DNA from: Pseudomonadales bacterium
Lineage (GTDB): Bacteria > Pseudomonadota > Gammaproteobacteria > Pseudomonadales > JAUIET01
Reading direction: 5' to 3'
DNA length: 64,000 bases
Assembly: GCA_045106985.1 (NCBI GenBank)
Contig: JBGCFQ010000020.1
Location: forward strand, 138,429-202,428
Both the position numbers and the translations under genes were made by a program. Within the stretch, counting starts at the first letter, position 1; each line of letters begins with the position of its first letter. Under the pieces are notes generated by a model. The model ran no database searches, had not been told where the DNA came from, and saw only the letters and a program-made list of their open reading frames with translations. Shown piece after piece: positions 7,733 to 64,000 of this stretch.

Positions 7733-9784
7733 TCAGGCATAAGCGTCAATTCCACCGTCTCTTTCTGGCGTCTTACCAACAGAACTATTGTCGATTGCTG
7801 TGTCACTTCCGGTCCCTGGCGCGCGGTCAGCTGTCTGTTGTGGACTTTCGGGCATTGATTGCTCGTCTGAATCCTGTTGCTCGACACTAGTATCCCCTAA
7901 CTCAATTCCCATTGATTCCAAGTGTTCACGAAGCCTAGGTAAACTTGCTTCGATTAACTCGCGCGCTGCGCTTGTTTGAGTCAGAAAGCTCACTGATGTC
8001 TGTTTCTCATCGGAACTCACCTGAATCTGTAGTGAGCCTAACTCTGGAGGATCGACCCGAATTTCCGCCACTTGTGCCGCGTTGGTCATCATCCATTGAA
8101 TTCGTTGCCCCAACTGCGGCACAGTATTGCTTGCCGGGTTGCTTGCGTCCCCCATATTCAGGGCGAAGCTGGCCGACATCGTTGAACTAACAGCGGCTGA
8201 AAACCCGCTGTTCTGTCCGCTTGTGGCAAACGGCGCCGTAACCGGCCTGTCTGGCAGTTCCGCTACCGAGCTCGCTTCAGTAGAACGAGCTGCCGAGTCT
8301 ATAAACCGCACGTCAGACATCTTCGATAGCATCCCATCAGCATTAAATGAGGCAGTTCGAGCATTGGGTGAAAATTGACCGAGAATACTCGGGGCGACTG
8401 TGACTTGATTGCTAAAGTTCAGAGCATGACTCGTAGGCTGCACTGGCGTTGCCTGCACTAAATTCGTTGTGTTTGAGACGCTAGGCGACTGACGACTAGT
8501 TGGATCCGCGATTGGCACCGATGCGGCGTTAGAGAGCTCCTTCGCAGCATCATTTATGATGGAACCATTAGAGAGCAACTTAGCGGAATCGACAGAGCTG
8601 CTCATCGCATTGGTTAGATTAGAGAGCGGATTGGGCGAGCTCGCCGCAGCTAGAGCATCTTTTGACCCCCTACCAAGTGTACGCATCACATCGGGTTCTA
8701 TGGGTTTAGCCACTAGGGTGTCGGCTTCAATACCAGATGATTGTCTACCTATACGGGCGTGAACAAGCGCTTCGCTAGTACCGACGTTGAGTTCAAATGA
8801 GCCAGTGGCACGACCGGACGCAATAACAGCATCCCCAGCTGCCCCAAGCGTGGACCTGCGCGCCAAGAGTTGTTGTTCGTGTGGAATGCTAAGCGACTCT
8901 TGCGTATTTGAAGGTCCCTTGGACAATACGCTACTCGGAGTTGGCTGTTCCCCAAGAACTGTAGATTGACTGATGACTCGTGTTATTGGGCTCGAGCCAA
9001 GGCTGCCGGCTGTGGCATCTAAAGCCGGGCTTCGACCTTCAGCAGCCGCGAACACTGCACTGGATGTTGAAGTCGTCCACTTTTCAGAGCTTCTCAAGCT
9101 TCCAGTTTCAGTTTCACCAAAGGCGCGCAATGACGCCTTGCCAGCGGCATCGGCATTGGCAGCGACAGCTTCCGCTCGAGGAGTCACTGAAGCATTTGTA
9201 CTTCCAAGAGCAGCAGTACCGATCCCAAGTCCCTCTCTCGCACTAGCTGACATTTGGTCATCGCTTATTGGCGCATGCAGCTTTGACATGGTACCGGCCT
9301 GAACATTGGCATTTAAGATGTCGCTATTAAGCCCAATAAAAGTTGAGGGCTGCGCTTTTACAACTTTTGCGTTAATGGTGGCTTCAGTGCTGCCGCCATG
9401 CAGTACCTTCTGCAATGAAGTATCGTATAGTAGTTCTCGAGACACGACGCTTGAAGTGTCCAAAGGTGCAAAGGTAGCTCCTAAGCTAATTTCGAGCGAT
9501 GCTAAGGTTTGATCAATATCAATATCTTCAACGCGTAGACTAGCTGTCGTCACCGGCAAATTACTGCCATCTCCTGGCGGCAATAAGCTGCCAGAAGGAT
9601 TCGCTAGACCAGCAGCAAAGCTAGTTGGCGGTAATAGGTTATTGGCGGGCTGCAGTGACTGCAGGCTCTGATTTAAAACGCCATCAAAGCTTCCAGCGCC
9701 GGCTATTTGAAGTGCATTTGCGCCCTTCTGGCTTATGTTTCCAGTTAAAGCGGATAAAAATGAGAGTTGTACAGCATTGCTCAT
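7733..9784 (-). CDS. fliK: Flagellar hook-length control protein FliK
   Basis: The product is long, Ala/Ser/Thr-rich and low in complexity. Its C-terminal Flg_hook-type domain reads VAEIRVDPPELGSLQIQVSSDEKQTSVSFLTQTSAARELIEASLPRLREHLESMGIELG. The ORF extends to 9898 and I prefer the ATG at 9784 (MSNAVQLSF...), but the start is uncertain. Confidence 0.85.
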   Translation of the reverse strand: MSNAVQLSFLSALTGNISQKGANALQIAGAGSFDGVLNQSLQSLQPANNLLPPTSFAAGLANPSGSLLPPGDGSNLPVTTASLRVEDIDIDQTLASLEISLGATFAPLDTSSVVSRELLYDTSLQKVLHGGSTEATINAKVVKAQPSTFIGLNSDILNANVQAGTMSKLHAPISDDQMSASAREGLGIGTAALGSTNASVTPRAEAVAANADAAGKASLRAFGETETGSLRSSEKWTTSTSSAVFAAAEGRSPALDATAGSLGSSPITRVISQSTVLGEQPTPSSVLSKGPSNTQESLSIPHEQQLLARRSTLGAAGDAVIASGRATGSFELNVGTSEALVHARIGRQSSGIEADTLVAKPIEPDVMRTLGRGSKDALAAASSPNPLSNLTNAMSSSVDSAKLLSNGSIINDAAKELSNAASVPIADPTSRQSPSVSNTTNLVQATPVQPTSHALNFSNQVTVAPSILGQFSPNARTASFNADGMLSKMSDVRFIDSAARSTEASSVAELPDRPVTAPFATSGQNSGFSAAVSSTMSASFALNMGDASNPASNTVPQLGQRIQWMMTNAAQVAEIRVDPPELGSLQIQVSSDEKQTSVSFLTQTSAARELIEASLPRLREHLESMGIELGDTSVEQQDSDEQSMPESPQQTADRAPGTGSDTAIDNSSVGKTPERDGGIDAYA

Positions 9785-9912
9785 GAAGGTCCCTGACAAT
9801 AAAACATTATGTTTCATGGGCTTCACTTGCAAAATGCAATCAGTGATTAAGCCCTGACTAGATGTAGTAAAGCAAGTGCTTTGCCAACTATCGAGCAAGT
9901 GGGTATTTTCTT

Positions 9913-10281
9913 CTAAACGGCCTTTAATATCTCAGAAGACGTGCTCGCCCAGCTTTGCTTTAAATCAGCCAACGCAGATTTCATAGCACCAGTTCTGGAA
10001 GATAAAGTTGAGGATTTTGCTGCCGACTCCAGCACGTAGCAATGCCTAGCTACGTCGGCGGCACCTAAATTTAGAGCGCTCCCTTTAAAGCTATGTGCAA
10101 CTTCTGCCATTCGAATAGAGTCTTTACGCTCAAGAAATTCTTCAAGTTGCCGAAGTCGACTTTCACTATCGGCTACAAATGCCTTTAGAAATTCATCAAA
10201 ATCGCCTTCCATCACGAATTTCATTTCGTCAAAGATTGCAAAATCAATTTTAGGATTCGATCTGTTGTTCAAAGTTGCCAT
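9913..10281 (-). CDS. Histidine phosphotransfer (HPt) domain protein
   Basis: 122-aa ORF carrying the HPt phospho-acceptor motif AHSFKGSALNLGA. It lies between fliJ and fliK. Confidence 0.8.
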   Translation of the reverse strand: MATLNNRSNPKIDFAIFDEMKFVMEGDFDEFLKAFVADSESRLRQLEEFLERKDSIRMAEVAHSFKGSALNLGAADVARHCYVLESAAKSSTLSSRTGAMKSALADLKQSWASTSSEILKAV

Positions 10282-10320
10282 CTACGGTCTTGCCTGAATA
10301 TTGAGGAGCAAGATCGAATT

Positions 10321-10902
10321 CTAACACTTATATAAAACCTTTATCTGGTTAGATCGAGGCTGCAGATGTACATCACTCGCTAGTTCCTTAACCAACGTCA
10401 AACCACGACCATTAAATGCTTCCAAGCTTTGAGCGCGGGAATGCGCCTCGAAAGACTTCTGGAATCCACTGCCTGAATCGGCCACTATTATTTGAAGGCT
10501 AGGTCGATCACTTGTATCCAGCATACACTCTACTCTAATCCAGCCTAGCGCCGATTGTTCCTGGCTCAGCAGCTGACGAAGTCTGGACTGTCGCTTATTA
10601 TCAAAGTCATAAAAACTGTTTTCGTCTGACTTATCCGTATCTGCCAGAGCCAGCACTCCATAATCCAGTGCATTTATGTAAAGTTCATTAACTATGGTGT
10701 GAACATTTTGCCGTGCAGAAGAGGGTAAACCCGTATTAACAAGCGCTTCAAGGATTTCGCTAACAGGACTGCTAGCCGCCAGTTCAACGCCTTTAAACTC
10801 AAACTCTAGAAACCAGCCGTGTTCGCGGGCACACTGCACATCACCGACCGGCTGAGAGCGGGAGTCTAGATTGCGTACTGTTCGCCGACGATCAAGAAAC
10901 AT
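10321..10902 (-). CDS. Stand-alone HATPase_c / anti-sigma-factor-type Ser kinase-like protein
   Basis: 193-aa ORF with Bergerat-fold boxes: an N-box-like NELYINALDYG, a G1 box ADSGSGF and a G2 box GRGLTLV. It has no REC, PP2C or STAS domain. Confidence 0.6.
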   Translation of the reverse strand: MFLDRRRTVRNLDSRSQPVGDVQCAREHGWFLEFEFKGVELAASSPVSEILEALVNTGLPSSARQNVHTIVNELYINALDYGVLALADTDKSDENSFYDFDNKRQSRLRQLLSQEQSALGWIRVECMLDTSDRPSLQIIVADSGSGFQKSFEAHSRAQSLEAFNGRGLTLVKELASDVHLQPRSNQIKVLYKC

Positions 10903-10987
10903 GTCAATTAAAAAAATGATGTACTTAGATTAAAGGTTAGCTCTTCATAGCTGTTCCTGCCGAATTTTTACAGCACTGATTCGTATT

Positions 10988-11464
10988 TTAGCGATTAGAG
11001 CGCCGGTCGAATGCACGACGCTGCTCAGACTCTTCCTCAGTTTGGCGGTCTGCCGCTTGCTCACTCAGCACATTTAATTGCCGAGTAGCACCGTGTAACT
11101 GATCTCCCATGTTCCGTTCACGACGACTGGCCGATATCCATAACTCTGTCGCCCTTTGCGTATAGCTTTGTATCGCTTGTATTTCCAGTTGCTGTCGTTC
11201 GATAACAGTTTGTAGACGACTCAGGAATAGTTGTTGGCGAACACGGTCTTTTACTCCAGTCTGCCGTTGAAGTTGTGCCTGGCGCATGTTTTCGAGGTAT
11301 TCATTGTAGTAATCCTGAAGACTCGATAGTTTTTGTTGCTCTATATGTTCTTTTTGTCGGCATTCGCCTAGCTGTCGGGCAACGGTTCTCTCTTCGCCGA
11401 CGAGCAGTTTGTGAACAGTTGCGAGCGCTTTAGTTCGGCGCTGAAGTCGTTTGATGGTAGCCAT
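10988..11464 (-). CDS. fliJ: Flagellar export chaperone FliJ
   Basis: 158-aa Gln/Arg-rich coiled-coil ORF immediately downstream of fliI. Confidence 0.85.
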   Translation of the reverse strand: MATIKRLQRRTKALATVHKLLVGEERTVARQLGECRQKEHIEQQKLSSLQDYYNEYLENMRQAQLQRQTGVKDRVRQQLFLSRLQTVIERQQLEIQAIQSYTQRATELWISASRRERNMGDQLHGATRQLNVLSEQAADRQTEEESEQRRAFDRRSNR

Positions 11465-11492: not shown

Positions 11493-12863
11493 TTATGTAG
11501 CTTCAAGTTCTGTCGATTGGCTAGTTTCCGGCAAGGTCTGGTTAATAGGTGTATTCACCAACTGGCCAAGGTCTTGGGTTGCTCTCTGCATATCAACTCC
11601 GGCTTCCACTGCCTGTTGCAGGAATGCCTGCATAAATGGCCATTTTGCAACCGCAGCATCAGCAAGCGAGTTAGCGCCCTGTTGATAGGCCCCGATCGAG
11701 ATCAAGTCGCGAACATCATTGAAGGCCGCGTTCCATTGTTTGAATTGCATGGCCTGCTGCAATTGTCCGGCACCACAAATATTGGGCATTACCCGGCTAA
11801 CGGATGCGCCAACATCAATAGCCGGAAAGTGTCCTGCATCAGCTAAGTCCCGTGATAGAACGATGTGACCGTCCAGGATCGCTCTCGCGGCATCGGCCAC
11901 CGGGTCTTGAAGTTCGTCTCCATCGGTTAGAACGGTATAAATTGCAGTCAATGAGCCATTGCCATGTTCACCATTACCAGCGCGTTCCACCAAGGTAGGA
12001 AGCTTAGCAAACACAGAGGCCGGATAACCACGAGTTGCTGGCGGCTCGCCAGCGGCAAGCGCTACTTCGCGATGTGCCTGCGCATAGCGCGAAAGAGAGT
12101 CCATTAACAGCAAAACATGTTTGCCGCTGTCTCTAAAATGTTCTGCTATTCGAGTAGCGGTGTTTGCCGCGCGAATTCGCATCAGCGGCGTTTCATCGGC
12201 AGGAGAAGCGACAACAATGGCTTTGCGTCGGGTAGTTTCATTCATGTTGTGGTCGATAAACTCCCGCACTTCCCTACCCCTCTCACCGACCAGCCCAACC
12301 ACTACGACATCAGCCGCTGTATAGCGAGTAATCATGCCCAAGAGAGTGCTTTTACCGACACCACTGCCTGCGAAAAGTCCAATTCTCTGACCTCGCCCCA
12401 GAGTCAGTAGGCTATTGATAGATCGAACGCCAACGTCCAGGGGCGTGTTAATAGGTTGGCGTTGCATAGGGTTAATTCTTGGGCCAGTAAAGCGAACTGA
12501 TTGCTGGCACTTTATCTCTCCGTGATCGTCGAGAGGTTCTTCAAGCGCGTTAATAACGCGGCCCAGTAACGCGTCTCCAACGCCAATCAATCCGCTGCTA
12601 TCCAACGGCCTAACACGCGAACCAGGAAACAATTGGTTCTGACCAGCAAGTGCTACCAGGAATGAACGATCATCTTCGAAACCAACCACCTCCGCTTCAA
12701 CAGGTCTATGTTCGGGATGCTCTATAAGACAACGGCTACCCACTGCTGCACGCAGCCCGATGGCCTCGATTGTCAGACCAACGACCCTATGTATTCGCCC
12801 AGTTGCTTTTGGCTCCGGGGTAAATTCAAATTGGGATGCTGCTTGGCTTAGTTCTTCAAGCAT
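11493..12863 (-). CDS. fliI: Flagellum-specific ATPase FliI
   Basis: 456-aa ORF with Walker A GSGVGKST and Walker B VLLLMDS. It resembles an F1/T3SS ATPase. Confidence 0.95.
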   Translation of the reverse strand: MLEELSQAASQFEFTPEPKATGRIHRVVGLTIEAIGLRAAVGSRCLIEHPEHRPVEAEVVGFEDDRSFLVALAGQNQLFPGSRVRPLDSSGLIGVGDALLGRVINALEEPLDDHGEIKCQQSVRFTGPRINPMQRQPINTPLDVGVRSINSLLTLGRGQRIGLFAGSGVGKSTLLGMITRYTAADVVVVGLVGERGREVREFIDHNMNETTRRKAIVVASPADETPLMRIRAANTATRIAEHFRDSGKHVLLLMDSLSRYAQAHREVALAAGEPPATRGYPASVFAKLPTLVERAGNGEHGNGSLTAIYTVLTDGDELQDPVADAARAILDGHIVLSRDLADAGHFPAIDVGASVSRVMPNICGAGQLQQAMQFKQWNAAFNDVRDLISIGAYQQGANSLADAAVAKWPFMQAFLQQAVEAGVDMQRATQDLGQLVNTPINQTLPETSQSTELEAT

Positions 12864-12926
12864 TTCGCTTTCTCATTTTTGATCATAAGTCAGTTAGATC
12901 GGAACCACATTGGAGTGATCCAAGGG

Positions 12927-13664
12927 CTAACCCAGCCGGGCTGGTTCAAGCTGGGTTTTCAAGGCTGCGACTGCTTCATCTATCCTGTGCTCCACAGTGT
13001 GGTCAAGTAGAGCCCTGCGGGCCTCAATGATGCAATCGCCCGCTTTTAGAGTGGGGTCTGCAACTAGGCGCCAGTTTTGACTACTCTGATAACTCTCTAG
13101 TGAGTCGTAATCTAGTTGCGCAACTCTAACCTCAATGACCTGGTCTGCATCCGCGAGGCAGCCTACAGCCTGTTCAATGATGGCCTCCATGTTGGCTTGC
13201 CCGATGTGCAGTTCGGTCTGAGTGATACTACGGAGGAGCTTTTCTATCAGTTGCAGAATAAGTTGTCTTTCCTGTTGATTGTGTACGTTCATCGTTGATG
13301 GTAACGATGCCTCAATCTGGCTAATAACGCCCATTGCCGACTCCAGCGCTTTTGATGCTGACTCAGCGCCTTTCTTGGCCGCATCTTCATAACCCTTTTT
13401 TTCACCTTCGCATCGGCCCTGTTCGAAACCTTCTGCGCGGGCTGCACTCAGTAATTCCTCCAAGTCACTTTCAGTAACCCGCAAACGACCTTTATGCGGC
13501 TCATTTGTTTTTTCCGAAGTGGGCTCACTAACAAATGAAGGTAGTTGCGCCGCAGCCACGCCTTCTTGCTTAGCAACGTACACTACTTTTTCATCGCCAA
13601 TTTCGGGCAAGGTCCAGCTTTTCACGTCTGTTAGCTCCGCGGATGGAATTCTCAGGCTATCCAC
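12927..13664 (-). CDS. fliH: Flagellar assembly protein FliH
   Basis: 245-aa ORF between fliG and fliI, with an acidic, coiled central region and a FliH-type C-terminus. Confidence 0.85.
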   Translation of the reverse strand: MDSLRIPSAELTDVKSWTLPEIGDEKVVYVAKQEGVAAAQLPSFVSEPTSEKTNEPHKGRLRVTESDLEELLSAARAEGFEQGRCEGEKKGYEDAAKKGAESASKALESAMGVISQIEASLPSTMNVHNQQERQLILQLIEKLLRSITQTELHIGQANMEAIIEQAVGCLADADQVIEVRVAQLDYDSLESYQSSQNWRLVADPTLKAGDCIIEARRALLDHTVEHRIDEAVAALKTQLEPARLG

Positions 13665-54770: not shown

Positions 54771-55472
54771 CTAGTAGCTTTCCGGTCTCAGTAATTCACC
54801 GTCCACCAGAAAAGAATCAAGGCTGAATTCAAGCTTACGTTCCATAATGGCAAAAAACACTACATTAGCGCGTGTATGACATAAGGTAGATTGAGGCAGT
54901 TCAGGTGTATTAGAAAAAATAGCGGCCGGATGAAATAAGGCGATATTTCGTCCGCCATTGATGCATCGCGCAGAGGGGTACACTAATACTTCAACGGCAC
55001 TCTCTCTAACCCGTCTGCCTAAAGACTGAGTTTCCCGGTAAGAGCGACGGTCTTTAAGCTCTTCGGAGGATTCCGCGTAGTCGTAGCTGCTGAAGTCCAC
55101 CCCTGAATCGCTACGATAGCTAAATTCGAACAAAGTGTGGCAACTGTCTATTGCGTGAGGTGGTGCTTCAAGCATGTCATGCCACCAACAAAATCGATAA
55201 TAAGCCACCTCCGCCATGCAGGTTTGCGCCTGCCTGGACGCATAAAATATACCTCGTTCAGCACGTGTTCCAAATCGCGACCCGTACTTAAGTGGGGGAT
55301 ACCTAAATGGCGTGTACAGCAAGTAATGCATATGCTGGCAATCATCTGGTACAGGTGGCTTGGCAGAATCAATAATAGATTCCAACAAGTCTTGTTCAGC
55401 GAGTGAATCTGTTAGTAGCAGTGTTGCTGTGACTTCCTGGCTTTCAACCAGGCGATGCGCCCTGCCCATCAT
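54771..55472 (-). CDS. RES-domain toxin (NAD+-targeting family)
   Basis: The ORF extends to 55553 and the start is uncertain: ATG at 55472, or GTG at 55505 overlapping the antitoxin stop. RES elements are SRFGTRAERGIFYAS, the E in CMAEVAYY, and YPSARCINGGRNIALF. Confidence 0.75.
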   Translation of the reverse strand: MMGRAHRLVESQEVTATLLLTDSLAEQDLLESIIDSAKPPVPDDCQHMHYLLYTPFRYPPLKYGSRFGTRAERGIFYASRQAQTCMAEVAYYRFCWWHDMLEAPPHAIDSCHTLFEFSYRSDSGVDFSSYDYAESSEELKDRRSYRETQSLGRRVRESAVEVLVYPSARCINGGRNIALFHPAAIFSNTPELPQSTLCHTRANVVFFAIMERKLEFSLDSFLVDGELLRPESY

Positions 55473-55497
55473 AGGTTCAGGGGCGAATCTTAGCGAA

Positions 55498-55863
55498 CTA
55501 AGCACGGCCACGCATTGCATCACAGTATTGAGCAACAGACACCAGGCCATCAACAGATTTCATCACCTGTAACGGTATTTGGTCGGCAAATGCATGATTG
55601 GGCGTGTTCAGCCAATGCTGTATATTTTTCGTATCTCCACCCATTAGCGTGTGAACAGATCGGTAAACACGCAACACAATTGCGGCAAGACGCCCTGCAT
55701 TCTGCTCTGGGTCAATATTCTCAGTCTGGTACACACGGGCCAGCGTCGTGCGATTGACGCCAAGAATATCCGCCATTTGCTGATTTTCGACGCCCATGGC
55801 TACCTGTGCTCTGTAGAGCGCCTTAGCGAGCACAGATTTAGCGTTGGCATGAACTTTAAGCAT
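55498..55863 (-). CDS. Xre-type antitoxin with a DUF2384 (MbcA/ParS-like) toxin-binding domain
   Basis: The ATG at 55863 is preceded by GGAGG. The product has an HTH (QQMADILGVNRTTLARV) and the C-terminal HWLNTPNHAFADQIPLQVMKSVDGLVSVAQYCDAMRG. Confidence 0.8.
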   Translation of the reverse strand: MLKVHANAKSVLAKALYRAQVAMGVENQQMADILGVNRTTLARVYQTENIDPEQNAGRLAAIVLRVYRSVHTLMGGDTKNIQHWLNTPNHAFADQIPLQVMKSVDGLVSVAQYCDAMRGRA

Positions 55864-55955
55864 GAAACCTCCGAAATAGATGTATTTCATCTATTATAGC
55901 CAAAATTCAACCAAGTAACCAGGCGTATGCGTCATAAGGCCTTAATATGATACTT

Positions 55956-59253: not shown

Positions 59254-59446
59254 GATTCATCCAACACTGAAAACAAGCAACGACCCACAACGAAGGAAAT
59301 GAAGGCATTTTATCATCTATGTCAGAACGAACTGCAAACTGCACAGCTCTGTAATCCAGCTGGCTTCCATCCAATCAGCAAACGGTTTATCGTAAGCGAA
59401 TTGGATTACCATCCTTTTGCTTAAACAACTCAACGAGACACGAATA

Positions 59447-61327
59447 ATGCCAGCAACCGAAACAGTATGGGACAGCCTAATACAAGGCGCTCTAGTCTTT
59501 GATGGCACTGGCGCGCCAGCGGAAGCTTTGGATATCGCGATTAAGGACGGTCGAATAGTCGCCAAAGGGTCAGTGCTTGCGCCACAAATGGCCGACGAGG
59601 TGATTAATGCCAATGGCCAATGGCTTATGCCAGGGCTTCTAGATATACATACTCACCTCGACCTAGAAGTAGACCTTGATCCCAGGCTCACGGAAGTGGT
59701 CCGCCACGGAACAACCACAGTACTGGTTGGTAATTGCAGTTTGGGCACGAGCTTCGGCCAGCAGATCGAAGACAATCAAAATCCCATAGTCGATTGTTTT
59801 ACACGGGTTGAGAACATACCCAAAAAGGTACTGCGTAAGTGCGTTGAAGCCGTGACCTGGAACAGCCCGGCAGAATACATGGACCACTTTGACAATGTGC
59901 CACTCGGCCCCAATATAGCCGCCCTACTCCCGCACTCTATGCTGCGTATTGAAGTTATGGGGCTCAAAGACAGCGTCAGCCGCGATCCAACAGAACAAGA
60001 ACTTACGCAAATGACTGAGCTTTTGGACGACGCACTCGATCAGGGCTATGTTGGCATGAGCACCGATGGGCTTCCATTTCATTTCCTCGCCTCTGAACCG
60101 TATACCGACCAGAGAATTCCGACTCAATTTGCAAAGTTTGGTGAGCTAAAACAACTGCTGCAAGTGGTACGCAACAAGAATCGCGTATGGCAAACCACTC
60201 CTATTATTGAAAACCGCGCCAAGGCTTTCGTTTACTTCGCGCTCACTAGCGGCCGCCTATTTGGCAAAACACTGAAGACATCAGCGTTATCGGTGATGGA
60301 GTTTGTGTTGATGCCCAATGCCAGTGGGGCCTTTCTCGGATTCGCCAAATTGATGAACAGCAAATTGTTCCAGGGCGACATGCACTTTCAGTCTCTGGCA
60401 ACCAATTTTAGAGTTTGGTCAGATGGCATAGTTAGCCCGCTTTACGAAGAGCTGGATTCAACGTGTCAACTCATAGCTAAAGAGTACGATGATGTAGAAG
60501 GCCGTCTCGCGCTACTCAATGACCCCGTATTCATAGAGCAGTTCAGAACGGATTGGCATCATGGCAGACGTGGCAATACTATCGCGCACCTAAAATCGAA
60601 GCTCGGTATGCCAGACAGTTTGGTGATTCGTGATTTGAAGCGCATGGTGTTCGATCGAGCACCCCTCGACCTATGGAATGGCGAGGATCTGCAGTCTCTA
60701 CTCGATCGATTGGAGAAATTCCAGAAAGGCGACGCGAACTCTGCCAGGTCTGACGAAGAAAGAGCAATATTTGATAAGTTCCCCTCACCCATTGAGGACG
60801 ATGCAAACTTCATGCTCCACCTTCTCCGGGAGTACGATCGTAACTTCAGATACTGGGTAGATGTCGGCAACGTCACCAAGTCAAAAGTAAAAGAGCTAAT
60901 GATGCACGACCAAGCGCTTCCAGGGTTTTCTGATTCTGGTGCGCACATTACGAATATGGCTTTCTTCGACGTTAACCTGATGGCTTTAAAGCTAGGCCAG
61001 GAAGATGGCACAGACATGGTTAGTAAAGTAGTACGTCGCCTGACCAGGGAGCCAGCGGAGTTTTTCGGGCTAGACACAGGCCGCCTGGATATTGGCTGCC
61101 AAGCTGACATCACGCTAGTAGACCCTGAAGCTCTGGAGAAGTACGACTCTAATGAAAACAGACAACTCATTTACCGCGAATTGTTTGAGCACGAGCAGAT
61201 GGTCAATCGGTCCGATGGCGTTGTAAGCCGTGTGCTTATAAATGGTCAAACCGTTTGGGTTGATAACGATTTCACGGAAGTTTTAGGTCAGCAGAAACTA
61301 GGCAAGGCATTACGGGCCGGCCAGTAG
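59447..61327 (+). CDS. Amidohydrolase, N-acyl-D-amino-acid deacylase family
   Basis: The ATG at 59447 gives MPATETVWDSLIQGALVFDGTG. The metal motif is MPGLLDIHTHLD. The C-terminal ADITLVDPE...VLINGQTVW is typical of D-aminoacylases. Confidence 0.8.
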   Translation: MPATETVWDSLIQGALVFDGTGAPAEALDIAIKDGRIVAKGSVLAPQMADEVINANGQWLMPGLLDIHTHLDLEVDLDPRLTEVVRHGTTTVLVGNCSLGTSFGQQIEDNQNPIVDCFTRVENIPKKVLRKCVEAVTWNSPAEYMDHFDNVPLGPNIAALLPHSMLRIEVMGLKDSVSRDPTEQELTQMTELLDDALDQGYVGMSTDGLPFHFLASEPYTDQRIPTQFAKFGELKQLLQVVRNKNRVWQTTPIIENRAKAFVYFALTSGRLFGKTLKTSALSVMEFVLMPNASGAFLGFAKLMNSKLFQGDMHFQSLATNFRVWSDGIVSPLYEELDSTCQLIAKEYDDVEGRLALLNDPVFIEQFRTDWHHGRRGNTIAHLKSKLGMPDSLVIRDLKRMVFDRAPLDLWNGEDLQSLLDRLEKFQKGDANSARSDEERAIFDKFPSPIEDDANFMLHLLREYDRNFRYWVDVGNVTKSKVKELMMHDQALPGFSDSGAHITNMAFFDVNLMALKLGQEDGTDMVSKVVRRLTREPAEFFGLDTGRLDIGCQADITLVDPEALEKYDSNENRQLIYRELFEHEQMVNRSDGVVSRVLINGQTVWVDNDFTEVLGQQKLGKALRAGQ

Positions 61328-61452
61328 CCGAAACCGATCTGCGCAGCCTGTGCAATGCAGGCTTAGCTAAGCAGCCCACGTAGAACAATAGAGAGACCTT
61401 TCCAAAAAGTTTACCTTTCAAAACGTCATTGAGGCTAACGGCTCTGGCGCGT

Positions 61453-61466
61453 GTCAATTATTTGAC
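61453..61466. promoter_or_regulatory. FleQ-box-like palindrome upstream of the zinc-ribbon/GGDEF-like gene
   Basis: GTCAATTATTTGAC has perfect GTCAA/TTGAC arms. It differs from the recalled consensus GTCaNTAAATTGAC at two positions. It lies 222 nt upstream of the ATG at 61688. Confidence 0.4.
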
Positions 61467-61687
61467 TACTCTTAGAGAATGATTGAAATTTGCGCGCCAA
61501 CTGTTTGTTATACATACAATTAATGAGCAAAAATTGATTATTTATTAGCCTTCTAGGATGGTGTTATGTAATTGCTTAGAACACCAAAGGGCAAATCGAC
61601 AAGGATTCGTTTAATAACTGAACAGTCAGGTTGCTTATCGACCGGTTGTGGCCGACCCACTACATTGGCAATACGTACAGGTAACAA

Positions 61688-63094
61688 ATGAATCCAGACT
61701 CTCATCCATCTCTAAGTGCACCCATTCTGCATTTGGAACTCGGCGCAAGCGCTTTACAGGCTCGAGCGTTTGGAGAGCTTGATTGCGTCCGCCTGGAGCA
61801 TTTTAGTAGCTCCGACGTCAATACCTTGATGAAAGACCGACCGGCCCTAGTCATTACTGCGCCGCGAGTTATTGATGCTGAACTGGCTATGATCGCTGTT
61901 AGACAGAGTGAGCAATATTGGTTTTTACCCGTTTTTCTAAGCCTACCCGGCACTGCAATTGCCGAAGCGCTTGCAGATGGAATGCCCCAGAACCTTGATG
62001 AGCTAGTGTCAAAGTTCGATCTCATTCAACTACGGTTGCAGGAGTTACCCGAGACACAATTAAAAAATGCGACGCCAGAATTCAAATTGTGCGCCTATCT
62101 TTACTCTCGTCCTGAAAGCTTACTAAGCCCGCTTCAATCCATCCATACGACTGAAGTGTGGACCTATCCGCTGGCCAATACCTTTTCCTCAGGTGAGCAA
62201 ACCGCAAACCATCTAATTTCTGACCTGGAGCAGCGCAACCTGCTCGCGCAGGGCAAACTGATTGATCGACTGAAGAGTTGTGCTAACTGCGAATCTGCCC
62301 AGCTAAGTTTTATAGATACCTGTCCTGACTGCAGCAGTATAGATATTGAAAACTCGCAGTTTTTTCACTGTTTCACCTGCGGTCATGTTGCCCCTGAATC
62401 GAAATTTATACGGCGCGACTGCCTGAAGTGCCCACAGTGCGAGACCAAATTTCGGCACATTGGCGTTGACTATGATCGTCCGTTAGAAGAGCTGTCCTGC
62501 AAGGCTTGCTCATCAGCATTTATAGACGGACAAGTAATTGCACGCTGTCTCTCGTGCGAAACAACCAACGACCCCGAACATTTGCGGTCGCGAAGAGTTT
62601 ACGAATATTCATTAAGCAGCAGAGCACCTTATGCAATACGACAAGGAGAGCTGGAAACACCACTAGAGCTTGTCGACCATAGCCACTTTGCGTCGCCCGC
62701 CTACTTCAATCAAATGATCGATTGGCTGGTATCGCTTGCTCGGCGTTATGAGACCGACGGTTTTAGTGTACTAAAACTTTCAGATACAAGCCCGGCTGCA
62801 GAGCGCAGTTCAACGAAGACTGAGCAAAATGAAGTGTTCTTCAGGCGCATAGCAGAACTCTCTCGCGAAACGGATCTGTTGCTAAGAGTCGGGTCGCAGG
62901 AGGTATGGATTCTTCTACCTAAAACCAATGCTCATGATAGGGAAATATTTGTTCGCGAAGTTCGCACACTGGCAGAGAAGCTCCGCCCTGGGCAAGGACT
63001 TGAGAGCTTGCGCATCTTTGGGCTGAGCGTGCCTGAAGACTTCACAAAAGACAGCACCGGCGCCACTGTACTAGAAGCATTGGAACGAGGTTGA
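61688..63094 (+). CDS. Triple zinc-ribbon protein with a C-terminal degenerate GGDEF domain (I-site retained); putative c-di-GMP receptor
   Basis: 468-aa ORF with six CxxC pairs between aa 198 and 290 (CANC/CPDC, CFTC/CLKCPQC, CKAC/CLSC). The C-terminal region aligns to the GGDEF fold (SPAYFNQMIDWLVSLARRYETDGFSVLKL ... RETDLLLRVGSQEVWILLP). GSQEV replaces GGDEF, and RETD sits exactly five residues upstream, in the RxxD I-site position. Confidence 0.65.
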   Translation: MNPDSHPSLSAPILHLELGASALQARAFGELDCVRLEHFSSSDVNTLMKDRPALVITAPRVIDAELAMIAVRQSEQYWFLPVFLSLPGTAIAEALADGMPQNLDELVSKFDLIQLRLQELPETQLKNATPEFKLCAYLYSRPESLLSPLQSIHTTEVWTYPLANTFSSGEQTANHLISDLEQRNLLAQGKLIDRLKSCANCESAQLSFIDTCPDCSSIDIENSQFFHCFTCGHVAPESKFIRRDCLKCPQCETKFRHIGVDYDRPLEELSCKACSSAFIDGQVIARCLSCETTNDPEHLRSRRVYEYSLSSRAPYAIRQGELETPLELVDHSHFASPAYFNQMIDWLVSLARRYETDGFSVLKLSDTSPAAERSSTKTEQNEVFFRRIAELSRETDLLLRVGSQEVWILLPKTNAHDREIFVREVRTLAEKLRPGQGLESLRIFGLSVPEDFTKDSTGATVLEALERG

Positions 63095-63103
63095 TCGAAA
63101 CCT

Positions 63104-64000
63104 ATGTTTGATATAGCTCAAGAAGCCTTCGCAATCTACGAAGTTTACATTGCAAACTTTCGAAGTGGCGACGCCATAGTGTATGCCATGGAATTGGCGC
63201 CATTCATTGCCATGTTCGAACTTCCCTTGTACTTGCTGATCTTTCTTGGAGTTCTGAAATATTACCGGCGTAAGGCGCTCACTCCACCAAAGCAACTTAC
63301 TTTCTCTCCTTCAGTGAGTTGCATCGTCACCTGCTATTCCGAAGGCAAGGACGTTCAAACCACCATAAGCTCCATGGCCAATCAAATTTACCCCGGCGAT
63401 ATTGAAATACTCGCGATGATCGATGGTGCAGTGGCTAACAAGCCAACCTATGAAGCCGCAGAGGAAATGCACGCAAAGGTTGCGCGCATTCCGCGTCGAA
63501 CGCTTCGGGTAATTCCTAAGTGGCTTCGGGGTGGTCGAGTGTCATCTGAAAACACTGGGCTCGCCATTGCTAAAGGCGAAATCATTATGGTGCTCGACGG
63601 AGATACATCCTTCGATAATGACATGGTCGCAAATGCAGTACAGCATTTCGCGGACCCTAATGTTGCTGCGGTTTCCGGAAATTTAAGGTTGCGCAATATT
63701 CGTGACGGCCTAGCAGCTAAGCTGCAGGCAATTGAATACATGATGTCAATCGGCACCAGCAAAGTGGGCCTTAGTGAGTTCAACATTGTAAACAACGTTT
63801 CTGGTGCATTTGGTATTTTTAGAAAGAGCGTCATGCAGCATATTGGTGGCTGGGACTCTGGTACAGCTGAAGATCTGGATCTTACACTTCGTTTGAAAAA
63901 ATACTTCGCCAGATACCCCGATATGCGCATAGTCTTTGAATACTATGCATTGGGTCATACCGATGGTCCTGGTACGTTCAAAGAATTCTTTCAGCAACGG
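63104..64000 (+). CDS. Processive family-2 glycosyltransferase (PgaC/NodC/BcsA-like synthase), 5' part; continues beyond the window
   Basis: This gene is absent from the ORF track because it has no stop in the window. My translation from the ATG at 63104 reads MFDIAQEAF..., with a TM region (LPLYLLIFLGVL). GT2 motifs are VSCIVTCYSEG, VLDGDTSF (DxD), GAFGIFRK, TAEDLDLTLRL and FFQQR at the edge, which would begin QxxRW. Confidence 0.8.
   Translation, partial: MFDIAQEAFAIYEVYIANFRSGDAIVYAMELAPFIAMFELPLYLLIFLGVLKYYRRKALTPPKQLTFSPSVSCIVTCYSEGKDVQTTISSMANQIYPGDIEILAMIDGAVANKPTYEAAEEMHAKVARIPRRTLRVIPKWLRGGRVSSENTGLAIAKGEIIMVLDGDTSFDNDMVANAVQHFADPNVAAVSGNLRLRNIRDGLAAKLQAIEYMMSIGTSKVGLSEFNIVNNVSGAFGIFRKSVMQHIGGWDSGTAEDLDLTLRLKKYFARYPDMRIVFEYYALGHTDGPGTFKEFFQQR

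Follow-up and report, generated by a model that had tools for sequence, protein, structure and literature searches.

What does a gene for a soluble, cysteine-rich protein do directly ahead of a polysaccharide synthase gene, and to which kind of system does such a pair belong? The question is raised by the right-hand end of a 64,000-nucleotide stretch of DNA from a Pseudomonadales bacterium (GenBank assembly GCA_045106985.1, contig JBGCFQ010000020.1, positions 138,429 to 202,428; hereafter the window), in which an open reading frame (ORF) for a 468-amino-acid protein is followed closely by a gene for a family 2 glycosyltransferase (GT2). A preliminary description, made from the letters of the sequence, took the two genes as a candidate new exopolysaccharide module gated by cyclic di-GMP (c-di-GMP). 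We consider it likely that the region is the start of a c-di-GMP-gated exopolysaccharide operon of the Mxd type, the first gene coding for an MxdA-like receptor and the second for an MxdB-like synthase.

The ORF runs from an ATG at nt 61688 to a TGA stop at 63092-63094, and the same protein, at 100% identity, is found in a Pseudomonadales metagenome-assembled genome (MAG). The short distance to the GT2 gene reported earlier is correct, with an ATG at 63104, 9 nt after the stop, opening a frame that stays open through to 64000 (299 codons). The features of the region are as follows.

61328..61687, forward strand: intergenic region of 360 nt, presumed promoter or leader, between an amidohydrolase ORF (59417-61327) and the ATG at 61688.
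61688..63094, forward strand: mxdA-like gene for a 468-amino-acid soluble protein of three domains (REC-like, TackOD1, degenerate GGDEF), from the ORF and its homology to a Shewanella khirikhana protein (P0328).
61688..62053, forward strand: flavodoxin/receiver-like domain (residues 1-122) without a phospho-acceptor aspartate, from an AlphaFold2 model and Foldseek.
62060..62614, forward strand: TackOD1 domain (residues 125-309), from Pfam PF18551.
62279..62557, forward strand: six CxxC pairs (12 cysteines), H227 and a DYDR motif (residues 261-264), from conservation in 296 relatives.
62675..63091, forward strand: degenerate GGDEF-fold domain (approximately residues 330-468), from a family profile and Foldseek.
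62864..62875, forward strand: RETD, an RxxD I-site (R393 to D396) and putative c-di-GMP contact, from conservation and alignment to PDB entries 7e6g and 6zxm.
62891..62905, forward strand: GSQEV (residues 402-406) at the GG(D/E)EF position, a degenerate A-site, from alignment to the GGEEF of solved cyclases.
63104..64000, forward strand: mxdB-like GT2 synthase gene, its 5' two-thirds (299 of ~447 codons) before the cut at the window end, from Pfam GT2 matches.

The mxdABCD operon of Shewanella oneidensis MR-1 (SO4180 to SO4177) has been known since 2006 (PMC3691769, PMC7253198). Its first gene, mxdA (SO4180), codes for a degenerate GGDEF protein, mxdB for a membrane GT2, mxdC for an efflux-pump-like protein and mxdD for a protein without homology, and mutants of mxdA and of mxdB both lose aggregation and three-dimensional biofilm (PMC3691769, PMC3409153). 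According to two later papers that cite Gambari et al. 2019 (PMC7666153, PMC11395469), MxdA is a c-di-GMP-binding effector with CheY3 and the cyclase PdgA as partners, and it "probably activates the Mxd machinery." The same-orientation neighbor of mxdA, SO4181, appears in a table as an "RNA pseudouridylate synthase family protein" (PMC7253198).

The connection to the window was made through P0328, a TackOD1 protein of S. khirikhana recovered in a search seeded with an Agarivorans homologue. Its locus (L086) carries on one strand genes for a pseudouridine synthase, the TackOD1 protein, a GT2, a HlyD-like adaptor, and a 137-amino-acid ORF, and this five-gene order is that of SO4181-mxdA-mxdB-mxdC-mxdD. 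The product of the window ORF is 31% identical to P0328 over residues 118-465 (E = 2e-55), and the two GT2s, that of the window and that in the MxdB position, share 51% identity (E = 2e-106). An MxdA homologue thus stands first, with a degenerate GGDEF domain in it, and a GT2 gene comes directly after it in the same orientation. The window stops within the GT2, and the HlyD-like adaptor that corresponds to MxdC is seen in the nearest relatives, L005 and L004, whose adaptors match the S. khirikhana MxdC with E values of 1e-27 and 8e-36, respectively. The 137-amino-acid ORF in the MxdD position was matched, of the loci fetched, in L086 alone. We take this as good, though indirect, sequence evidence for an MxdA/MxdB pair in the window.

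Because the module is homologous to, and by way of S. khirikhana syntenic with, S. oneidensis mxdABCD, it is a new relative of the described, little-studied mxdAB system and not a new kind; the novelty proposed in the preliminary description is not upheld, and the zinc-ribbon part that it could not assign to a described exopolysaccharide system belongs to the Mxd type. The role that it suggested for the first protein, a c-di-GMP receptor gating the synthase, fared better, as it coincides with the published role of the Shewanella homologue and is supported by that homology.

The case for a c-di-GMP-binding receptor is made by the C-terminal domain, which had been described as following the GGDEF fold with the active-site motif reading GSQEV. 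Standard models score below their cutoffs (15.6 bits versus 23.8 for Pfam PF00990 at residues 386-431, and 14.4 bits versus 37.4 for NCBIfam TIGR00254). The fold is borne out by a family profile, built on an alignment of 32 homologues (A1), that matches solved GGDEF domains with E values down to 1.4e-8. An AlphaFold2 model of the whole protein built on the same alignment has a mean predicted local distance difference test score (pLDDT) of 85.5 and a predicted template-modeling score (pTM) of 0.60, and the top 50 Foldseek matches of this model in the PDB are all GGDEF domains. Among these are PleD, WspR, DgcR, the Thermotoga maritima and Marinobacter cyclases, and PelD (4eu0, 4dmz, 4etz), with E values from 3e-6 to 1e-3 and target-normalized template-modeling (TM) scores of up to 0.73 for isolated GGDEF domains.

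In the profile search, the R-x-T-D of the family aligns onto the RxxD I-site of the cyclases in PDB entries 7e6g and 6zxm, and the family positions five residues beyond it align onto the GGEEF of solved cyclases. In the window protein RETD is followed by five residues (LLLRV) and then by GSQEV, which is the PleD-type I-site spacing, as had been pointed out from the sequence. Among 296 non-identical relatives, in which all conservation was counted, R393 is an arginine in 290 and D396 an aspartate in 295, such that RxxD is kept in ~98%; T or S occupies position 395 in 273. Positions 402-406 vary freely, and GG at 402-403 is found in none of the relatives. Given these counts, the spacing between RxxD and the motif can be taken to be more than chance. 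With the I-site near-invariant and the motif free to vary, the I-site is therefore under strong selection and the catalytic site is gone family-wide.

What is found is thus a GGDEF fold with RxxD five residues upstream of the motif, and neither a GG(D/E)EF motif nor a curated score at the level of a diguanylate cyclase. An active diguanylate cyclase was considered and rejected on these grounds (GSQEV, the Pfam and NCBIfam scores below cutoff, and GG in 0 of 296). Many Vibrio, Aeromonas, Marinobacter, Photobacterium, and Pseudomonas members of the family are labeled "diguanylate cyclase" in NCBI records, and these labels are probably wrong, because the catalytic motif is present in none of the 296 relatives. 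The names do suit a different explanation, in which the MxdA-like protein acts on the c-di-GMP pool, either as an unorthodox diguanylate cyclase or as a partner that modulates real cyclases. An indirect control of cellular c-di-GMP levels by MxdA has been reported (Rakshe et al. 2011, cited by PMC3691769 and PMC3409153), and MxdA interacts with PdgA (PMC7666153). We regard this explanation as very improbable, as the effect in Shewanella is described as indirect, and the missing GG, the five freely varying motif positions, and the sub-cutoff Pfam score all count against it.

Ahead of the GGDEF domain lies TackOD1, which the preliminary description had offered as a low-confidence guess and which is recovered at essentially full length, PF18551 matching residues 125-309 along profile positions 4-188 of 188 (E = 3e-61; 206.7 bits versus a cutoff of 32). 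The six CxxC pairs (C198/201, C212/215, C228/231, C248/251, C271/274, and C287/290) can be read as three ribbon-like units, in agreement with the three zinc-ribbon-like units reported earlier at nt 62279-62557. Each of the 12 cysteines and H227 is conserved in 286 to 296 of the relatives, and D261, Y262, D263, and R264 are each conserved in 294 to 296. Zinc binding by TackOD1 has been predicted from its cysteine pattern (PMC5847659), and the domain here probably binds three zinc ions. Residues 130-211 follow an alpha-beta-alpha-alpha-beta-beta order in the AlphaFold2 model, and on this model TackOD1 probably opens with a winged-helix-like unit ahead of the three zinc ribbons. The Pfam domain by itself is found in 1054 clusters at 50% identity (E ≤ 1e-10), and the proteins of the best 150 of these are nearly all 440 to 480 amino acids long, with the domain at the same position. 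TackOD1 seems not to have been discussed in the Mxd context, and it is absent from the Mxd papers that we consulted on MxdA.

The winged-helix-like order could be taken to favor a role in transcription, with the MxdA-like protein a c-di-GMP-responsive transcription factor acting on the 360-nt upstream region in the manner of VpsT, FleQ, or BrlR. In archaeal response regulators, from which TackOD1 was defined, it is an output domain, and DNA binding is common among outputs of this kind; a similar cysteine-rich insert of PriA positions the DNA-unwinding wedge (PMC5847659), and an adjoining regulated operon suits a local regulator equally well. However, no DNA-binding Pfam family is matched in the 468-amino-acid protein, the TackOD1 part finds nothing in the profile search of solved structures, and the upstream region (61328-61687) contains no notable palindrome or repeat, with only one trivial 11-nt pair. 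The 9-nt gap, the overlapping stop and start codons at the receptor-GT2 junction in four other loci (L060, L083, L084, and L086), and the adjacency to a GT2 across phyla are typical of subunits of a complex, and MxdA has been treated as an effector of the machinery (PMC7666153). A transcription factor is therefore unlikely, and we retain a receptor that acts on the synthase.

The N-terminal 122 residues, modeled separately (pLDDT 85.7), have a flavodoxin-like fold. Their Foldseek matches are B12-binding domains and many receiver domains at TM scores of 0.5 to 0.59 and E values of 3e-3 to 7e-2, none reaching 1e-3. No Pfam match to the receiver family PF00072 is found at the N terminus, and where strand 3 ends the protein has a threonine (residue 57), a position that is variously N, D, A, or S in the family. 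A true receiver domain was rejected on these three counts (no PF00072 match, T57 at the acceptor position, and a weak fold match with a best E of 3e-3). When the N-terminal profile was compared with PDB sequences, the top matches were designed TIM barrels, which we judged to be spurious beta-alpha repeat matches, and the best natural match was a response regulator (E = 0.044). "Receiver-like without a phospho-acceptor," which is how the domain had been characterized earlier, is a fair label at the level of the modeled fold. A homologue of 489 amino acids (P0076) begins with a genuine REC domain (PF00072, E = 2.5e-28), TackOD1 comes next, and its GGDEF domain narrowly passes the Pfam cutoff (24.7 versus 23.8 bits). 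A REC-TackOD1-GGDEF response regulator may on this evidence be the ancestor of the family, and the N-terminal domain would be of receiver origin because P0076 has a bona fide REC there. The 468-amino-acid protein has no match to a GAF domain and no convincing membrane segment, one marginal hydrophobic stretch at residues 53-71 being a buried strand/helix in the model.

The second gene codes for a GT2 that matches PF13641 (E = 2.3e-17), PF00535 (4.9e-17), and Chitin_synth_2 (1e-11), as well as PF13632. Three motifs of processive synthases had been read from it, and two of these are complete in the window: DGD at residues 165-167 (nt 63596-63604) and TAED(LD) at residues 254-257 (nt 63863-63874). 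The third, QxxR(W), is incomplete there, as the window ends at ...FFQQR; the full motif (Q298-R-H-R-W302) is visible on a longer, 100%-identical contig (L001), and QRHRW is also at residues 298-302 in L005. Hydrophobic segments are present at approximately residues 30-56 and 329-392, as seen from L001 and L005. With the C-terminal part taken from these two loci, DxD, TED, QxxRW, and flanking membrane helices are all present, and the predicted product is a membrane-embedded synthase with the motifs of enzymes that polymerize and translocate a sugar chain. The closest curated model is that for PgaC/IcaA (TIGR03937), for which the window GT2 scores 124 bits and the full-length L005 GT2 137 bits versus a cutoff of 422. 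An identity as PgaC/IcaA, the synthase of poly-beta-1,6-N-acetylglucosamine (PNAG), was considered and rejected on scores so far below the equivalog cutoff, and the window GT2 is therefore PgaC-like in fold class and not a PgaC ortholog.

The two genes travel together. A family scan using one genome per species gave at least 579 relatives, and gene context was read from 80 loci, which come from the Gamma- and Betaproteobacteria, Desulfobacterota, Myxococcota, Campylobacterota, Synergistota, Negativicutes, Fibrobacterota, Lentisphaerota, Planctomycetota, and Armatimonadota. In 71 of the 72 loci with room for it, a same-strand GT2 gene begins no more than 600 nt beyond the receptor gene, its product 45 to 90% identical to the window GT2. 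The preliminary description had named a failure of the pair to co-occur in related genomes as a refutation of the proposed coupling, and the pair withstands this test. Of 56 loci with room, 55 have a HlyD-like adaptor and 54 a TolC/OEP-like gene. The closest relative with flanking sequence, L005 (52% identity to the ORF product, and a GT2 90% identical to that of the window), has the order receptor, GT2 (447 amino acids), OEP/TolC-like protein (874 amino acids), and HlyD-like protein (351 amino acids), and the same four-gene order is found in L004. The 874-amino-acid protein has a signal peptide and OEP repeats (PF02321, E = 1.2e-9), together with a weak OprJ match. This usual linkage to TolC-like and HlyD-like genes suggests tripartite export.

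The arrangement is not uniform. In several loci (L025, L029, L034, L055, L057, and L061) the TolC-like and adaptor genes precede the receptor-GT2 pair, a placement seen in Synergistota, Bacillota, Negativicutes, and a Patescibacteria-labeled MAG, and receptor, GT2, and adaptor occur without a TolC-like gene in Vibrio parahaemolyticus, Agarivorans, Shewanella, and a few others. The 874-amino-acid protein of L005 (9891-12515) is TolC/OEP-like in its first half only; its last ~250 residues have no Pfam match yet are conserved, and in L060 (12638-13549), L075, and L081 (Pseudomonas) a tail piece of ~250 to 300 amino acids stands alone between GT2 and adaptor. A Gammaproteobacteria MAG (L044, match at 9743-11044) has no GT2, adaptor, or TolC-like match in 21 kb, and it is the sole locus with ample downstream sequence (10 kb) yet no GT2. 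In Agarivorans (L084), a small GGDEF fragment (7746-7886) lies upstream of the mxd-like operon, and a dCache-GGDEF gene, likely for an active cyclase, is just downstream on the opposite strand (11826-13232); this flanking cyclase could be a local source of c-di-GMP. Among unusually long TackOD1 proteins there is no MxdA-GT2 fusion: P0475 (971 amino acids) and P0444 (752 amino acids) are without a GT2 domain and have 400 to 620 N-terminal residues with no Pfam match, and P0444 has two TackOD1 stretches.

Around the observed domains, the conserved I-site, the lost active site, the gene linkage, and the homology and synteny with Shewanella mxd, we infer a scheme for the Mxd-type operon of the window. 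The first gene product would be an MxdA-like cytoplasmic receptor made of a non-phosphorylatable receiver-like domain, a cysteine-rich TackOD1 holding putative zinc, and a dead GGDEF domain with RxxD. Rising c-di-GMP would bind at the I-site (RETD), and the loaded protein would directly switch on or stabilize the synthase through contacts made by TackOD1, the receiver-like domain, or both. The MxdB-like GT2 would polymerize and translocate the sugar chain. Judged from the closest relatives, the operon would continue past nt 64000 with genes for a TolC-like outer-membrane protein and a HlyD-like periplasmic adaptor, and the polymer would leave across the envelope by a synthase-adaptor-TolC-like route.

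Several points weigh against this assignment. The first is a substitution: the position 28 residues past the I-site aspartate, which we take to have the spacing of PleD R390, the second c-di-GMP-contacting arginine, is a glutamate here (E424, nt 62957-62959) and K or R in 281 of the 296 relatives. R423 and R426 flank E424, and owing to this substitution the affinity for c-di-GMP could differ in the window protein. The link to S. oneidensis rests on the S. khirikhana ortholog, identified by its five-gene synteny; no S. oneidensis entry is among the listed matches of the homology searches, the GT2 search gave generic names only, and the unnamed matches that were traced belong to Aliivibrio, Marinobacter, and Vibrio and not to Shewanella. 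Evidence of contact between MxdA and MxdB is found neither here nor in the cited papers, and no fusion protein was found. The TolC-like and adaptor genes lie outside the window, which ends inside the GT2, and the GT2, far below the cutoff of the PgaC model, does not by itself indicate the polymer. We observe separately that in the closest relatives of the window protein the basic residue has apparently moved to position 426.

The substitution at E424 also speaks for a third explanation, namely, that the window protein is a lineage-specific constitutive structural subunit or scaffold of the synthase with a vestigial I-site. Control would then be exerted by way of the receiver-like domain, on which a CheY-like partner would act, or else by the cysteines, according to their metal or redox state. 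Oxidation could be sensed by the twelve invariant cysteines, and Shewanella MxdA binds CheY3, which in its phosphorylated form is required for biofilm (PMC7666153). However, the window protein retains R393, T395, and D396, all three nearly invariant family-wide; R423 and R426 could take the place of E424; and invariant four-cysteine sets usually hold structural zinc. We judge such a scaffold to be quite unlikely and prefer the c-di-GMP-gated receptor of an Mxd-type operon.

The nearest described system is Mxd of S. oneidensis, with the same order of degenerate-GGDEF receptor, GT2, and HlyD-like adaptor and with a receptor that is a published c-di-GMP-binding effector needed for three-dimensional biofilm (PMC3691769, PMC7666153). 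It differs in that the closest relatives of the window have a gene for an 800- to 874-amino-acid TolC-like protein between GT2 and adaptor and no MxdD homologue, whereas the Shewanella, Vibrio, and Agarivorans loci are without a TolC-like gene. The archaeal REC-TackOD1 response regulators of Thaumarchaeota have the same domain with a receiver likewise before it (PMC5847659), but the receiver is a real one, there is no GGDEF domain, and the genes are in type IV pilus loci and not beside a GT2.

Other receptors share the I-site-bearing GGDEF fold. In the Pel system of Pseudomonas aeruginosa, a polysaccharide machine is controlled by PelD, whose degenerate GGDEF domain binds c-di-GMP at RxxD (PMC2170427, PMC8461298). 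PelD has four membrane helices and a GAF domain, lacks TackOD1 and a receiver-like domain, and serves a system that exports through PelB/PelC. Its partner synthase, PelF, is presumably a family 4 glycosyltransferase and not a GT2. A PelD-type receptor was rejected on architecture, the window protein having no GAF domain and no membrane helices, and the fold with its I-site is the only common feature. BcsE of enterobacterial cellulose secretion, which we liken by description, is a soluble accessory subunit with a non-catalytic, I-site-bearing GGDEF-like domain (PMC8461298). Unlike the window protein it has no TackOD1, and it works alongside the PilZ domain of BcsA. BcsE also has a degenerate receiver domain. 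PssE of Listeria and YdaK of Bacillus are I-site-only GGDEF receptors on which polymer output depends, each encoded next to a processive GT2 (PMC4125290, PMC5422440), but they are membrane anchored and Gram positive, with neither TackOD1 nor a receiver-like domain and no adaptor or TolC.

The export route has parallels in BgsA/BgsB/TolC of the rhizobial mixed-linkage glucan and, likewise, in cyanobacterial cellulose, for which a c-di-GMP-activated route of GT2, HlyD-like adaptor, and TolC-type channel has been proposed (PMC13438883, PMC5567048). There, in contrast, c-di-GMP binds the C-terminal domain of the synthase, the TolC is a housekeeping one encoded elsewhere, and the GT2 is cellulose-synthase-like.

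Nothing is overturned by these findings, since I-site-only GGDEF receptors beside synthases and GT2-adaptor-TolC export both have precedents. An unannotated MAG pair ("hypothetical protein" and "glycosyltransferase") is placed in a system with published genetics, and the Mxd of Shewanella becomes a reduced form of a four-gene module that is far more widespread and includes a TolC-like channel of its own. The TackOD1 domain carried by the Mxd-type receptor had previously been described solely as an output of archaeal response regulators. TackOD1 in the receptor, the usual module's own TolC-like gene, and the cyclase annotation of many members appear to be under-described, and Shewanella, Vibrio, Aeromonas, and Pseudomonas stutzeri offer a tractable bacterial setting for the role of TackOD1 and for the polymer. 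It is possible, and we put it forward tentatively and with some doubt, that MxdA-like proteins constitute a large, essentially unstudied class, found in at least 579 species-level genomes of many phyla, each member coupled with a GT2, a HlyD-like adaptor, and a dedicated TolC-like channel. TackOD1 would in that case be a transducer joining c-di-GMP, a CheY-like partner, and possibly the metal or redox state of its cysteines, and the polymer would not be PNAG, cellulose, or Pel.

The 360-nt region upstream of the mxdA-like gene yielded no sigma-70 consensus site in a promoter scan, terminator matches in the same scan were at chance level only, and no Rfam family, c-di-GMP riboswitches included, was matched at E ≤ 1. 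Further upstream, on the reverse strand, the window codes for a RES-domain toxin (54771-55553; PF08808, E = 1.4e-26) whose ORF overlaps the end of one for an Xre/MbcA/ParS-type antitoxin (55498-55890; PF09722, PF20432), and together these look like a type II toxin-antitoxin pair. On the forward strand, an ORF at 57140-57841 matches an F420H2-dependent quinone reductase (PF04075, E = 4.8e-21) and overlaps the start of an enoyl-CoA hydratase ORF, with CoA-transferase and amidohydrolase genes around it.

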